A DNA stretch of 64,000 nucleotides from Candidatus Bathyarchaeia archaeon (GCA_049513715.1 JBEKVV010000001.1:160001-224000), one strand, 5' to 3'. Positions 3,054-49,739 are shown, counted from the first letter of the stretch. Numbers and translations: made by a program. The notes: generated by a model from the letters alone, not told the origin.

Positions 3054-3521
3054 TTAGAATTGTCGCAGCACATCCTCACGTTCCATGATGTGCCCACAAT
3101 AGTGGCACCGTAAACGTATCGGTTCCTTCTGGTCCACGCCGAACTGTGGTTCAACAGGTTCTCTGGAATTTGATATACATGCAATGTTATCGCACTTCAA
3201 AATTCCTCTGATGTCGGGCGGAAGTTGCACAACCTTTTTCGAGACCACGCCGTAGTTTCTGATTATGTTGATTGTCGCATTTGGAGCAATCAAGGCGATT
3301 TTGTCGACCTCACCGGGCTTGAGCTCCCGATTCTGAATCTTCACAATATCCTTGTGCTGTTGCCGTTTGCTTTCCACATTCATAGCCACGCTCACAACCT
3401 CGCCGTCCTTGCCGTCGATGCCAAGGATCTTCAATACATCTAACGCGAACCCAGAGGTAATATGGTCGATGACGGAACCGTCTTCAATTTTCTTCACGTA
3501 CAGTTCTTGGCGCGCCTGCAA
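3054..3521 (-). CDS. pyrI: Aspartate carbamoyltransferase regulatory subunit
   Basis: IEDGSVIDHI, KDIVKI, CDNIACIS and RCHYC zinc ligands. Confidence 0.97.
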   Translation of the reverse strand: MQARQELYVKKIEDGSVIDHITSGFALDVLKILGIDGKDGEVVSVAMNVESKRQQHKDIVKIQNRELKPGEVDKIALIAPNATINIIRNYGVVSKKVVQLPPDIRGILKCDNIACISNSREPVEPQFGVDQKEPIRLRCHYCGHIMEREDVLRQF

Positions 3522-3592
3522 CGCTAGTCAGTTGATTAAGCCTCCCAAGAGTTATTTAACCATGAAAACCAACAAGAGGCTGGCGCTGACAC

Positions 3593-4513
3593 GTGGATTT
3601 CGCTGGGCGTGACATCGTTTCAATAAAGGATTTTTCACGTGAGGAAATTGACTTCGTTCTTCAGATGACAGATGTGGTTGAGCCTATGGCCAAGAACGGA
3701 TCGCACGGGCTCGACGGCAAGATTATGGCCACGCTATTCTTTGAGCCAAGCACCCGCACTAGGTTGAGCTTCGAATCCGCGATGTACCGCTACGGTGGCA
3801 AATGCTTGGGATTCGCGGAACCGAAGGTCGCCTCAGTTCAGAAGGGCGAAAACCTAGCGGACACGGTTCGAGTCGTGGAGAGCTATGCGGACGTTCTTGT
3901 TATTCGGCATCAGCTGGAAGGAGCCGCGCGTCTTGCGGCCGAATTCGCTTCCATACCCGTGATTAATGCAGGCACGGGTGCTGAGGAGCATCCGACACAG
4001 GCCATGCTCGACCTCTACACGATGCGTAAGGAATTTGGCAAGATTGATGGGTTGAACGTGGTTTTGGCCGGCGATCTGAGATACGGTCGCACGGTTCACT
4101 CGCTTGCATATGCACTCTCATTGTACGACATCAACCTGTACTTGGTTTCGCCTTCTATTCTTCGTATGAGGAAGGAGGTCCTTGAAGAAGTACAAGGTCG
4201 AATCAAGATTGAGGAGTTAGAGGACCTTTCGAAAGTCATGTCAAAGGCCGATGTCATCTATATGACCCGGATTCAGAAGGAACGGTTCGGGTCGCTGGAA
4301 GACTATGAGAAAGTCCGTGGGTCTTACCGGCTGACGGCTGAGGATTTGACGGTCGCGAAGCCAAACATGATCGTGATGCACCCGCTGCCTAGGGTTGACG
4401 AAATCGCGGATAGCGTGGACGGAACGCCCCATGCAAAATACTTCAAGCAAGTCTGGTATGGGTTGCTTGTCAGAATGAGCCTCATTGGATTAGTGTTGGG
4501 CGCCCTGAGCTAA
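3593..4513 (+). CDS. pyrB: Aspartate carbamoyltransferase catalytic subunit
   Basis: FFEPSTRTRLSF, HPTQ, GDLRYGRTVHS, HPLPR. Confidence 0.98.
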   Translation: MDFAGRDIVSIKDFSREEIDFVLQMTDVVEPMAKNGSHGLDGKIMATLFFEPSTRTRLSFESAMYRYGGKCLGFAEPKVASVQKGENLADTVRVVESYADVLVIRHQLEGAARLAAEFASIPVINAGTGAEEHPTQAMLDLYTMRKEFGKIDGLNVVLAGDLRYGRTVHSLAYALSLYDINLYLVSPSILRMRKEVLEEVQGRIKIEELEDLSKVMSKADVIYMTRIQKERFGSLEDYEKVRGSYRLTAEDLTVAKPNMIVMHPLPRVDEIADSVDGTPHAKYFKQVWYGLLVRMSLIGLVLGALS

Positions 4514-5846: not shown

Positions 5847-8120
5847 CTAGCTGGCGAGCGTGTACTCTATTCTCTTGTCCGCGCTCCGCCTCTTTGACTC
5901 GGGCCAAAGATTGAAGGGGAGGAGCCCGTAGGACGCACGGCCAATGTAGGTCAGTTTGTCAGACCCGCATTTGCCGCATTTCGGACCTGTACCCCGGTCG
6001 GTGTTGCCGCAGGCAGTACAAGCGGAGTAGTTCGACGTGTAAGTCAGGAACTTGCAGCCTGCTTGAAAGGCCGCCTCAGTAGTCTTCAGTAAACCCGAGC
6101 CCGAAGAATCTGGCGCCGTACAAATTACGCTCAAATGTCCACCTGGTGTCGCTGATTGGAATTTCGATTCAATTCTTAGCCTAATCTCAATGGGCACCTT
6201 AGCTGTGAGTGGAACGGTGGGCATATCCGTATAGTGAAACAAACCCCGTGACCCATCAGCTACAATTACTGCTCTACCATACTCTTCGATGTCCAATTCA
6301 GCAAGCCGTCCCACAGCTTCATCTCCTGGCCGCTGCGAAACGCGAATTCTCATGTCCGCTTCTTCCGAAGCATCTTTGACGAGCTTCGATGATTCCTCCA
6401 GAATCCTCAAACCGAAATCCACTGCAATCTTGTCCCGATCTATCCTCTGCCCTGTGTGAGCCTCCACCGCCTCGCTAATACCGATCAGAGACAGATTGTA
6501 GGAAGCATTCTTCTCGTAAAAGTAAGGAGCCGAGGAGCTTCCACCTGCCAGCAGAGGCAGCAGTGGCTGCTTGAGCCGTTCGCCGACAAACCTCTTCTTT
6601 GCTTTGAAGCCCTCCACACTTAATGAGATCGATTCCTTGAGTAATGCAAGGAACTTCTCATCGCTCTTTTTTGAGTTGTAAGCAATCCGTGGAAGGTTGA
6701 GGAAGATCGTATCCATGCTCCCCGTTCTAATGCAGTCCGCGTCCCAGTGGCCAGTCCAGTCGTCAGAAATCCTTAGCCCTGTCGCGGAGTAGCTGCTCTT
6801 CTCCCCGTCGCCGATTAGCTCAAAGTAGGGAACACTCCTTGAAGCTGCGAGCTCATGTGCTTTTTCCAAAATCTTCCTAGTTTTCGGGTCGTCTAGCTCC
6901 TTGTGTCTGATTCTTATGATCAGGTGGGGCTGGATTGGCGGCCTAGCCTCAGACACTGTTCGGAAGGCTTCAACGGTTGCCTCGGCCAGCCTGAAGCTCT
7001 CATCTTGGAAATCTGCGTAATGGCCGCTAACTTTTCCTCCGGGCCCAATCGCTTCCTCTTGTGAGAGGAATTCTGGCATTTCTAGGTCAATGGTGAACGA
7101 GGTACCTGATTGTGGGCTGCCTGAGGTAATGTCTCTTCTAATTGATGTGAGAAAATAGGTTAGTGCCTTCGTCGTATCATCCAATTTCCTTCCTCGAACG
7201 TACGGGGCAAGGAATGTGTTGAGATATTCGAGCGTTTGTTCACCGGAGACTTCTCCCGAACCCATGTCGAGCACTTGTCTCACCAGAGTCAAAGCTCCCT
7301 CGAATGTTTCTGGAGGCTCTGTTCCTGGAAGGCTATTGCGTAAGAAATAGCGAAGGTCATGGACGATTTCGTTTGGTTTGAGTATCCAATTCTCTAGGTT
7401 TGCGATGTGTATCGATCCTGATAGGTGTGCGTCAGCCAGCTTATGGGGTAAGCAATTCAGCAAGACATACTCGGAGAGCACGGATTTAGCGGAAGAACGA
7501 TGAACGAAGTCCGCACTTAACTGGCTATCGCCCGCATTTCGAATAAGCTGAGCGACATCATAGACGGGCATGCCGAGCCTCGTGAGTTTGTGGCGATACT
7601 CCTCCAGCCTCTTCTCGATGAGGATGGCGTTTACGAATTCGCGAATCAAAGGCGCTGTCAAGTACACAGTCCTCAACCTAATGAGGCGGTCCTCTGCTTC
7701 CGCGGCAATTTCATCAGCAATTTCCTGCGGGACACCTGCCTCCACCACAAGGGATTTGGCGATCTTGTTGCGGTGAAATTCCTCTATCGCGAGTCTGGAT
7801 GTACGAACGTAGAGTTTACCGCGCTTCACGTTCACATATTCGTCCATGTCTCTTGCGAATGAGACGATCATTCGGCCGAGTTCAGTCAGCTCGTACTTCT
7901 TTGTCTTCTTATCCAGCGTGACCAAGCCAGTGCTTGTTAGACTTCGAAGATGGTAGACGAATTTGCCAGCGTCGCGGACAGGGTCGAGCTTCAGTTGAAA
8001 CATTATTTCTGTATACTGGAGTGAGCCCTTGATCGAAAGCAGTCGCAATATTTGTAGTCGAACGGGCGCCGACGCGGCGTCAAAGATGCTGGCACCGACT
8101 CTCTCCGATGAACGTTGCAA
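5847..8120 (-). CDS. ArsR-type HTH + ATP-cone + anaerobic (class III) ribonucleotide reductase-like protein with degenerate catalytic motifs
   Basis: N-terminal VRLQILRLL...YHLRSL...YELTELG; ATP-cone ending LTAPLIREFVN; AHLSGSIHI, HDLR, RTG...LNLPRIAY, GGH; C-terminal CxxC/CxxC. Likely start TTG 8120 (ORF open to 8162). Confidence 0.9.
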   Translation of the reverse strand: MQRSSERVGASIFDAASAPVRLQILRLLSIKGSLQYTEIMFQLKLDPVRDAGKFVYHLRSLTSTGLVTLDKKTKKYELTELGRMIVSFARDMDEYVNVKRGKLYVRTSRLAIEEFHRNKIAKSLVVEAGVPQEIADEIAAEAEDRLIRLRTVYLTAPLIREFVNAILIEKRLEEYRHKLTRLGMPVYDVAQLIRNAGDSQLSADFVHRSSAKSVLSEYVLLNCLPHKLADAHLSGSIHIANLENWILKPNEIVHDLRYFLRNSLPGTEPPETFEGALTLVRQVLDMGSGEVSGEQTLEYLNTFLAPYVRGRKLDDTTKALTYFLTSIRRDITSGSPQSGTSFTIDLEMPEFLSQEEAIGPGGKVSGHYADFQDESFRLAEATVEAFRTVSEARPPIQPHLIIRIRHKELDDPKTRKILEKAHELAASRSVPYFELIGDGEKSSYSATGLRISDDWTGHWDADCIRTGSMDTIFLNLPRIAYNSKKSDEKFLALLKESISLSVEGFKAKKRFVGERLKQPLLPLLAGGSSSAPYFYEKNASYNLSLIGISEAVEAHTGQRIDRDKIAVDFGLRILEESSKLVKDASEEADMRIRVSQRPGDEAVGRLAELDIEEYGRAVIVADGSRGLFHYTDMPTVPLTAKVPIEIRLRIESKFQSATPGGHLSVICTAPDSSGSGLLKTTEAAFQAGCKFLTYTSNYSACTACGNTDRGTGPKCGKCGSDKLTYIGRASYGLLPFNLWPESKRRSADKRIEYTLAS

Positions 8121-8265
8121 CTCAATACCGCCTAGAAGGTGAATTACAAGTACTATAGGCATGGGGTTATGTTTAAAAAATTGTAGTTGCGTGCATCTCG
8201 ACAGATTACGTACAGTTTATTTGAGATTAATCAAGCCGTGGCGCCGTCGACAGCCGAGAGTGGAG

Positions 8266-8792
8266 ATGAAGAACTTGGGCGAATTGCGCATGAACGAAGC
8301 CGATTACGCGAAACTCGCAGAGCTAGAAGACGCCTTCGAAAGGAAGGACCTTGAATACTTCAAGACTTTCCTAGGAAAATCGAGTGGTCTTCCCTTGCTG
8401 TTGCGTGTTCACTCTGTCTGCATGTTAGAGCACATGGGAAACGAAGACATTGTGAAGGCACTTGGTCAGGTCTTGAGAGATGACCCTAGCCCACTAACAA
8501 GGCATGAAGCAGCCTTCACCCCGGCCAGCTAGGTTTCCGCTCAGCCGTACCAGCACTTGTTGAAGCAATGCTCGAGGACGAGAGCCCCATTGTACGGCAT
8601 GAGTCGGCGGTAGCCCTAAGCTCGATTGGGGCAGAAGATGCGCTCCCTGAACTGGAACGAGCAATCAACGATAAGAACGAGGATGTCAGCAACTCTGCTC
8701 TTATTGCCTCCGAATATTTGACCTATCTGAGTCGAAAACGTGATAGTGTCAGCAAAGTCGGAGCGACCTTGAAACCTAAGATTCGCCTATAG
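8266..8792 (+). pseudogene. HEAT-repeat (PBS-lyase/DOHH-like) protein split by an apparent 1-nt deletion near 8521
   Basis: RHEAAFT ends in one frame and GQLGFRSAVPALVEAMLEDESPIVRHESAVAL continues in the next frame. Confidence 0.75.
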
Positions 8793-48289: not shown

Positions 48290-48760
48290 TTGATAATGTA
48301 TGTTATGAATAGGCACTTTAACAATCGTGCGGTTTCACAGGTCATCGCAGCGCTGCTCCTGATAGCAATAGCAGTCGCCGCAGCCATCTTGCTGTACGTG
48401 TTCGCCATTGGATTACTCGGTAGCCTCGGGTCTAGTGGTGGTCAACAAACGAAGGAGCAATTGATCATGGAAGCGTATAGCTTCCCCTCAACTGCCGGTG
48501 TCCTTACAATGCAAGTGAGAAACGTTGGTTCGGCGACAGTCAACGTTGGAGGGTCTGACTTCTTCATCAACGGCGTCAAAGGTACTTTAGGTGGAGTATG
48601 TGCTTCGATGACTGCGATGACAGTGGGTGGGTCATGTCAAGCCACCGTAACGTTGGCCAGTTATGCCAGTCTTTCGTCTGGTGCAGCGTATCCGTTGAAG
48701 ATTGTCACGCCTGACGGTGGAGTCTTCTCGTACTCAGTAACCTACGGAGGCAGTAGCTAA
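48290..48760 (+). CDS. Archaeal type IV pilin, copy 1 (probable major pilin)
   Basis: NNRA/VSQVIAALLLIA class III signal, VRNVG, GGAGGTGA RBS. Confidence 0.92.
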   Translation: MIMYVMNRHFNNRAVSQVIAALLLIAIAVAAAILLYVFAIGLLGSLGSSGGQQTKEQLIMEAYSFPSTAGVLTMQVRNVGSATVNVGGSDFFINGVKGTLGGVCASMTAMTVGGSCQATVTLASYASLSSGAAYPLKIVTPDGGVFSYSVTYGGSS

Positions 48761-49268: not shown

Positions 49269-49739
49269 TTGATAATGTATGTTATGAATAGGCACTTTAA
49301 CAATCGTGCGGTTTCACAGGTCATCGCAGCGCTGCTCCTGATAGCAATAGCAGTCGCCGCAGCCATCTTGCTGTACGTGTTCGCCATTGGATTACTCGGT
49401 AGCCTCGGGTCTAGTGGTGGTCAACAAACGAAGGAGCAATTGATCATGGAAGCGTATAGCTTCCCCTCAACTGCCGGTGTCCTTACAATGCAAGTGAGAA
49501 ACGTTGGTTCGGCGACAGTCAACGTTGGAGGGTCTGACTTCTTCATCAACGGCGTCAAAGGTACTTTAGGTGGAGTATGTGCTTCGATGACTGCGATGAC
49601 AGTGGGTGGGTCATGTCAAGCCACCGTAACGTTGGCCAGTTATGCCAGTCTTTCGTCTGGTGCAGCGTATCCGTTGAAGATTGTCACGCCTGACGGTGGA
49701 GTCTTCTCGTACTCAGTAATATACGGAGGAGCCGCCTAG
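49269..49739 (+). CDS. Archaeal type IV pilin, copy 2
   Basis: Identical to copy 1 except the C-terminus (IYGGAA versus TYGGSS). Confidence 0.92.
   Translation: MIMYVMNRHFNNRAVSQVIAALLLIAIAVAAAILLYVFAIGLLGSLGSSGGQQTKEQLIMEAYSFPSTAGVLTMQVRNVGSATVNVGGSDFFINGVKGTLGGVCASMTAMTVGGSCQATVTLASYASLSSGAAYPLKIVTPDGGVFSYSVIYGGAA

Follow-up and report, generated by a model that had tools for sequence, protein, structure and literature searches.

A Conserved Winged-Helix Family Built on an Inactivated Class III Ribonucleotide Reductase Is a Likely Regulator of Ribonucleotide Reductase Genes in Thermoproteota

Results

A Winged Helix and a Class III Reductase Fold in One Open Reading Frame

The DNA analyzed here (the window) is a stretch of 64,000 nucleotides from a Candidatus Bathyarchaeia archaeon. 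Translation of the window revealed no internal stop codon in a reading frame of 757 codons on the reverse strand (5847-8120; features are listed in Table 1). An in-frame ATG at 8162, which would yield a protein of 771 residues, probably lies too close to a TATA-like box to serve as the start, and the TTG is therefore preferred as the likely initiation codon.

Pfam searches of the query protein identified a DUF7347/ArsR-type winged helix-turn-helix (wHTH) at residues 11-87 (E = 3e-8), an ATP-cone at residues 104-175 (E = 3e-4), and an NRDD domain, i.e., the class III ribonucleotide reductase (RNR) fold, at residues 202-753 (E = 3e-62). The ATP-cone, which is of the VRTS rather than the KRDG type, scored weakly, i.e., under the Pfam cut-off alone and above it together with its neighbors. 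Against the NrdD equivalog model TIGR02487 the query scored 236.9 bits, below the cut-off of 326.35. The likeness to ArsR/SmtB proteins was at the level of the fold, with scores under the cut-offs of both models used (NF033788, 22.1 bits against 55; PF01022, 18 against 22). In the family alignment described below, G52, F54, Y56, H57, Y76, and G82 of the winged helix were almost invariant, as were the residues of the recognition helix.

An AlphaFold2 model built from an alignment of 73 sequences had a mean pLDDT of 90.6 and a pTM of 0.81, and its top Foldseek matches were class III RNRs. The ten-stranded RNR barrel and its C-terminal zinc domain were recognized by Pfam, the model, Foldseek, and the alignment alike. 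A preliminary description, made from the sequence, had proposed an intact open reading frame with wHTH, ATP-cone, NrdD barrel, and zinc ribbon; translation and Pfam confirmed this architecture, and the structure prediction that it had suggested gave a fold matching class III RNRs best.

Relatives were numerous (2346 hits among 8000 scored candidates, the best 120 having 53-100% identity), and the nearest of those with names were mostly Bathyarchaeia. In the databases, members are named either anaerobic ribonucleoside-triphosphate reductase or ArsR/HTH regulator.

Several other features of the window were observed. The pyrimidine genes pyrI and pyrB lie close to the query gene (3054-4513), pyrB being tail to tail with it and separated from it by two genes, and this neighborhood recurs in distant loci (L205, L208, and L210-L212). 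A divergent HEAT-repeat-like gene (8289-8745, + strand) has a change of frame near 8520, which may be an assembly error since its relatives in L016, L021, and L023 are read in a single frame of 170-200 residues. Two pilin-like open reading frames of 156 residues each (48290-48760 and 49269-49739, + strand), 979 bases apart and with identical N-termini, both sit in a cluster of pilin-like genes; they represent either a tandem duplication or an assembly repeat.

Table 1. Coordinates of the query gene, its domains and altered motifs, and associated RNR features
Feature	Position	Strand	Basis or remark
Gene with wHTH, ATP-cone, and inactive NrdD	5847..8120	-	Intact ORF, 757 aa, TTG start
ArsR-type winged helix (DUF7347), residues 11-97	7830..8090	-	Pfam and family alignment
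ATP-cone and the linker after it, residues 103-190	7551..7814	-	Most conserved region of the family
Barrel and C-terminal domain of class III RNR type, with loss of catalytic and substrate motifs	5862..7517	-	Pfam, alignments, Foldseek
Zinc ribbon, four Cys (701, 704, 715, 718)	5967..6020	-	Kept in 149/166 members
Glu251 at first active-site Cys column (T4 Cys79)	7368..7370	-	Alignments
Finger loop SYSATGLRI, without Cys	6768..6794	-	Alignments
Degenerate PAE motif, reads PGD	6318..6332	-	Alignments
Former glycyl-radical loop RASYGL, no G-Y pair at radical position	5922..5939	-	Alignments
Candidate operator box of 14 bp (two T-x-x-A flanking six AT-rich bases)	8172..8185	-	On the gene's own TATA-like box
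Class II RNR gene nrdJ	G000 C6 99384-102785		Insertion looks like an intein that has a homing-endonuclease-like segment
Candidate element in nrdJ promoter	G000 C6 about 102838-102877		Predicted, motif models

Catalytic Residues Are Lost Throughout the Family

The family was analyzed within a pool of 296 sequences (150 representatives plus proteins from fetched loci), of which the 271 with at least 520 residues were retained. The sole criterion for membership was a profile built on the first 97 residues, which gave 165 members plus the query, and 57 active NrdDs under 900 residues served for comparison. The first active-site cysteines of solved NrdDs aligned pairwise to E251-I252 of the query; this cysteine was present in 57/57 active NrdDs and in 0/166 family members, and the glutamate motif PAE in 56/57 and 0/166, respectively. 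RIVGY of the solved NrdDs aligned to RASYG, and a canonical glycyl-radical loop occurred in the last 90 residues of 0/165 members, a count slightly inflated because a few are cut by contig ends or frameshifts; a loose R-x-x-G-Y close to the C-terminus was found in three of the 166. The register of the finger loop was uncertain by two residues, the cysteine column being T447 in the archaeal NrdD alignment or L449 in pairwise alignments with solved NrdDs, and either way residues 443-451 contain no cysteine. Some cysteine was present within columns 445-450 in 14/166 members, two of them reading TGCR.

Substrate-binding elements were altered as well. In P. copri NrdD the substrate is held by the NxN flap and the HxHD (triphosphate) motif, according to an excerpt of PMC11226230. 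These two were invariant or nearly so in active NrdDs but scrambled in the family, and the Lys-His pair of the specificity-site hairpin (mapped by position) was degraded. No invariant substitute residues were found in the active-site columns of the family.

These alignments located the three substitutions that had first been noted from the sequence (SATG in the finger loop, E before HDLR, and RASYG) and extended the losses at the first cysteine and the radical loop to the orthologs, leaving the 14 stray finger-loop cysteines; neither Cys nor Gly aligned at the catalytic positions of the query. The earlier caveat that some class III enzymes lack the finger-loop cysteine does not rescue activity. 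T. maritima NrdD has no pre-positioned finger cysteine yet keeps SCCR, Cys125, and Gly621 (PMC4493059, in the part available); all of these are absent here, so that it provides no precedent for activity. Judged by these sequence comparisons, the family is catalytically dead, and the loss is real and conserved.

Conservation was unevenly spread, the mean share of the modal residue being 0.72 in the cone, 0.55 in the wHTH, 0.34-0.49 in the barrel, and 0.22 at the C-terminus. The cone and linker of the query family were closest to those of archaeal NrdDs with VRTS-type cones. A FastTree tree of the barrel alone (99 rows) separated 28/28 active NrdDs from 46/46 winged-helix rows by a branch with 99% local support; because it was unrooted and carried long-branch warnings, it was used for this split alone.

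Some sequences departed from the general pattern. L059 (G120:C9) and L060 (G071:C16) keep TGCR in the finger loop while the first cysteine and radical loop are gone, and are possible intermediates in decay. The members in L206-L207 and L215 are short (about 530-580 residues), and that in L206 retains the winged helix and cone while no longer scoring against NRDD. Ten NrdD homologs lacked both the wHTH and a canonical radical loop (P0179, P0190, P0202, P0213, P0217, P0218, P0229, P0235, P0236, and P0244); the two that were scanned, P0179 and P0213, have tandem ATP-cones. Their place on the tree was among active NrdDs and away from the winged-helix family, pointing to separate inactivation events.

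The Working Reductase of the Genome Is Class II

The genome assembly (2.79 Mb, 99.4% complete, 8.8% contamination) contained no NRDD match other than the query gene, and thus no other nrdD. The earlier observation that nrdG, the activase gene, is missing from the window held genome-wide, where neither of two activase models (TIGR02495 and TIGR02491) gave a match over its cut-off, although weaker radical-SAM matches exist. The NrdR model TIGR00244 had no match in the genome. The separate active RNR for which a search had been advised was found on contig C6; it is a class II enzyme (nrdJ) with an ATP-cone, and its gene is interrupted by what looks like an intein.

The Gene Accompanies Reductase Genes of Two Classes

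The N-terminal 200 residues matched in 104/151 genomes of the class and 135/201 of the phylum, a few of these matches being to the cone only, and in none of the genomes of families f20 (0/33) and f17 (0/4). By profile search, the fusion was not found in G012, G020, G053, G131, G140, G006, and G046. No phage copies were found using one f33 member as query.

In some lineages the gene lies directly upstream of an active nrdD, and in ammonia oxidizers directly upstream of nrdJ. An active nrdD was inside 9 of 40 fetched regions (L119-L158), and inside 11/11 regions that had been picked for adjacency. All 30 genomes of family f33, with clusters named Nitrosotenuis and Nitrosotalea, had the gene, and in 22/24 f33 regions a cone-bearing nrdJ started directly after it (one representative was confirmed as class II). 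Active NrdD was absent from 5/5 f33 genomes tested, in which the inactive gene was the sole NRDD match. Ammonia oxidizers are aerobes. Class III RNRs are oxygen-sensitive (PMC8365446, cited from an excerpt).

In family f15 the gene was present in 20/20 genomes and NrdR in 19/20. In loci of this family such as L033 and L038-L040, nrdD is directly preceded by an nrdR of the bacterial type, and the inactive NrdD homolog is also kept.

A Promoter Element Shared by nrdJ and nrdD Genes

A de novo motif (the nrdJ model) was derived from 29 of 40 nrdJ upstream regions of the order, 11 near-copies having been dropped, with the query's own genome left out and three congeners included. In the 2.79 Mb of that genome it ranked the nrdJ promoter first, with 32.7 bits against 15.3 for the next site. 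Because a model trained on nrdJ is circular here, a second was trained on nrdD alone, i.e., on 40 class III nrdD regions, none from the query's own family. By this nrdD model, too, the nrdJ promoter came out on top (26.6 bits, the next locus having 10.2), and at a shuffle p ≤ 0.01 the model recovered 24/40 nrdJ upstream regions (17/20 in the query's own family and 7/20 elsewhere). Those recovered in the own family included a non-orthologous type of nrdJ without a cone; outside it, several genomes had two nrdJ copies, with a site at one copy only.

In the reverse direction, at p ≤ 0.01, the nrdJ model recovered 14/63 nrdD regions from genomes bearing the gene as against 0/26 from genomes in which the gene was not found, counts that are not independent because the genomes are related; 49 of the 63 regions from gene-bearing genomes thus failed at this threshold. 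One negative region, G069, gave p = 0.035 in one shuffle run and p = 0.01 in another. G114, with a strong site and a cone-only match, was considered as a counter-example and set aside; directly upstream of its nrdD lies another frame resembling NrdD, truncated where the contig begins, and G114 was therefore kept in the gene-bearing set.

The 42 distinct aligned sites contained T-x-x-A four times, with spacings of 10, 12, and 10, and had symmetry centers at columns 12.5, 23.5, and about 35. An earlier reading as 12-bp tandem units was dropped after this symmetry test; the element is read instead as a pair of palindromic boxes, each of 14 bp, placed 22 bp apart with the second box on the BRE/TATA region. 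The predicted operator spans 36 bp. The element is AT-rich and the downstream box coincides with BRE/TATA, so that this box may be core promoter alone.

The 28-bp two-box nrdJ model did not score the family's own promoters, as is expected if these carry one box. A single-box model was therefore used for them; derived from RNR promoters of other genomes, it placed the box in the query's own promoter as tied third-best of 2597 upstream windows of the genome, with nrdJ first. The box pattern lay on the TATA in 31/74 family promoters versus 4/114 TATA-like sites of this genome, the pattern having been picked after the family promoters had been viewed and many of these being close kin.

The correspondence between gene and element was incomplete. 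G020 and G053 (genus g35) had sites at 30.5 and 28.9 bits, and the gene was not found in them; their congener G093 has the gene. In f15 the element was detected at p ≤ 0.01 in none of the nrdD regions tested and in 0/3 nrdJ regions. Models trained on Bathyarchaeia found no clear site before nrdJ at 20 phylum-level loci, f33 included. De novo search in f33 yielded an element resembling TCAA...TTGA ahead of nrdJ, with a counterpart on the gene's own TATA; neither was separable from core promoter sequence. The f33 element is similar to the one described above, without demonstrable identity. The nrdD promoters of f17 (L034 and L174-L176), where the gene is absent, have in common a palindrome-like element of another kind, at which some other regulator perhaps acts.

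Discussion

The family is likely to act as a sequence-specific transcription regulator of RNR genes in Thermoproteota, in which a winged helix has been fused to a duplicated and inactivated class III RNR. The regulatory link proposed in the preliminary description is upheld by synteny with both classes of RNR and by a common promoter element. The protein would be NrdR-like in its working yet is not NrdR, and would probably sense nucleotides through its cone. The original suggestion that RNR allosteric sites serve as the sensor survives in part, i.e., for the ATP-cone; the specificity hairpin, NxN flap, and HxHD motif are degenerate, leaving the cone as the sole plausible nucleotide site. On balance, although with less assurance, we lean toward a fuller account in which this is the missing RNR regulator of Bathyarchaeia, ammonia oxidizers, and related Thermoproteota, whose inherited cone reads the balance of ATP and dATP, whose binding sites are pairs of 14-bp boxes separated by two helical turns, and which stayed with its target when lineages exchanged class III for class II RNR.

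In mechanistic terms, a dimer would place its two winged helices on one 14-bp palindrome, and two dimers or one tetramer would most likely span the pair of boxes. RNR promoters would have a pair of boxes 22 bp apart, with BRE/TATA under the downstream one, and the gene's own promoter a single box on its TATA; the predicted regulon in this genome is nrdJ on contig C6 and the gene itself. By analogy with NrdR (PMC9110341) and the cones of NrdDs (PMC11226230), ATP or dATP at the cone may alter the oligomer or its geometry and so change DNA binding, with the barrel retained as a scaffold rather than a ligand site. Repression by blocking TBP/TFB is somewhat favored over activation from the upstream box, because the box overlaps the TATA in both promoters; in an excerpt of PMC5937170, BRE/TATA sites usually repress and upstream sites usually activate.

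A homodimer model of residues 1-310 scored 0.40 (best control 0.00), with contact agreement of at least 67% and pLDDT of at least 67, a mark reached by 21/30 solved homodimers and 0/23 single chains. The modeled interface (residues 154-168, 177-193, and 203-222) is the most conserved stretch of the family. This counts as weak support, because the modeled piece ends within the barrel and no alignment went into its folding, and faces exposed by the cut may have taken part. Conservation of the cone could, on this model, reflect a dimer interface instead of, or besides, nucleotide binding.

Known systems offer partial parallels. NrdR, the bacterial RNR-specific repressor, likewise combines an ATP-cone with a DNA-binding domain, acts on RNR genes of several classes through pairs of palindromic boxes lying upstream of them, and often controls its own gene (PMC9110341, from the part available). 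NrdR has an N-terminal zinc ribbon and a family model of 147 positions, whereas the query has an ArsR-type winged helix and a whole RNR barrel; the boxes of NrdR are about three helical turns apart (same excerpt), whereas those of the query family are of 14 bp with centers 22 bp apart. The solved NrdDs (T4, 1h78; T. maritima, 4coi/4u3e; P. copri, 8p23; S. thermophilus, 9d3x) share the barrel, ATP-cone, and zinc ribbon with the query, which in contrast to them lacks the first cysteine, finger-loop cysteine, radical glycine, PAE glutamate, NxN flap, and HxHD motif, has a degenerate specificity hairpin and an extra winged helix, and has no activase over cut-off. NrtR, whose effector domain is Nudix-like and which also has a DNA-binding domain, is similarly an enzyme fold put to new use in regulating its own pathway, is mislabeled as the enzyme, and differs in fold, pathway, and domain of life (PMC2330246, in excerpt). 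The archaeal winged-helix regulator TFB-RF1 also has a semi-palindromic site beside BRE/TATA, the position of which suggests the sign of control (PMC5937170, in the same excerpt as above); unlike the query it has no RNR-derived domain, and the comparison covered the position of the site.

Several alternatives were weighed. The protein might be a DNA-binding regulator of a wider or different regulon (e.g., pyrimidine or replication genes), the element being read by another factor or accounting for only part of the protein's role. Retention of the gene in f15 despite an NrdR before nrdD and no detectable element, its proximity to pyrB/pyrI in the window and at several distant loci, and the persistence of sites in a pair of genomes in which no copy of the gene was found all speak for this. 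We nevertheless consider it unlikely, given that both promoter models pick nrdJ as the sole strong site in the genome, that the gene and pyrB are tail to tail with two genes between, and that the gene is found directly upstream of two unrelated classes of RNR.

Less probable still is a non-catalytic partner of RNR, i.e., a subunit with an inhibitory or allosteric role that enters mixed oligomers with NrdD or NrdJ and whose wHTH would not be for promoters. Such a role would fit the retention of fold and cone, the adjacency to nrdD in many genomes, and the coincidence of the conserved cone surface with the predicted oligomer interface. It sits poorly with the lack of an NrdD in this genome and in 5/5 f33 genomes and with the almost invariant recognition helix, and it leaves unexplained a promoter element common to RNR genes and the gene's own promoter.

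That the family comprises active enzymes with an altered chemistry, as database names imply, is very improbable. The barrel and zinc site are intact, the 14/166 members with a finger-loop cysteine include two with TGCR, and 3/166 keep a loose R-x-x-G-Y; yet no member has the first active-site cysteine, no invariant replacements occupy the active-site columns, no activase exceeds its cut-off, and the gene is kept in aerobic ammonia oxidizers despite the oxygen sensitivity of class III RNRs. Finally, a decaying pseudogene or assembly artifact, a notion prompted by relatives from other assemblies that are split by frameshifts (L015, L021, and L025), is refuted by widespread intact orthologs, the open reading frame being intact here, the hits being as numerous and similar as described above, and conservation across the phylum being strong.

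The regulator of RNR genes proposed here appears to belong to an undescribed family, in that no description was found in the literature searched, where a mention in supplements or subscription papers is possible. In the main text of an RNR phylogeny preprint (10.1101/2022.04.23.489257), as far as available, the terms "Bathyarchae", "helix-turn-helix", and "winged" are absent, and in the available part of a preprint on archaeal Tn7, nrdD appears solely as an insertion site. The reuse of an enzyme fold in a regulator has a precedent in NrtR (PMC2330246, in excerpt).

NrdR is rare in archaea (PMC9110341, in the part available), which raises the question of how most archaea adjust RNR expression to the supply of dNTPs. 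For this problem the family supplies a named protein together with a predicted 36-bp operator and a target gene. If the interpretation is true, RNR itself has been recycled into a transcription factor. The label "anaerobic ribonucleoside-triphosphate reductase" wrongly credits anaerobic dNTP synthesis to genomes with class II as their sole working RNR.
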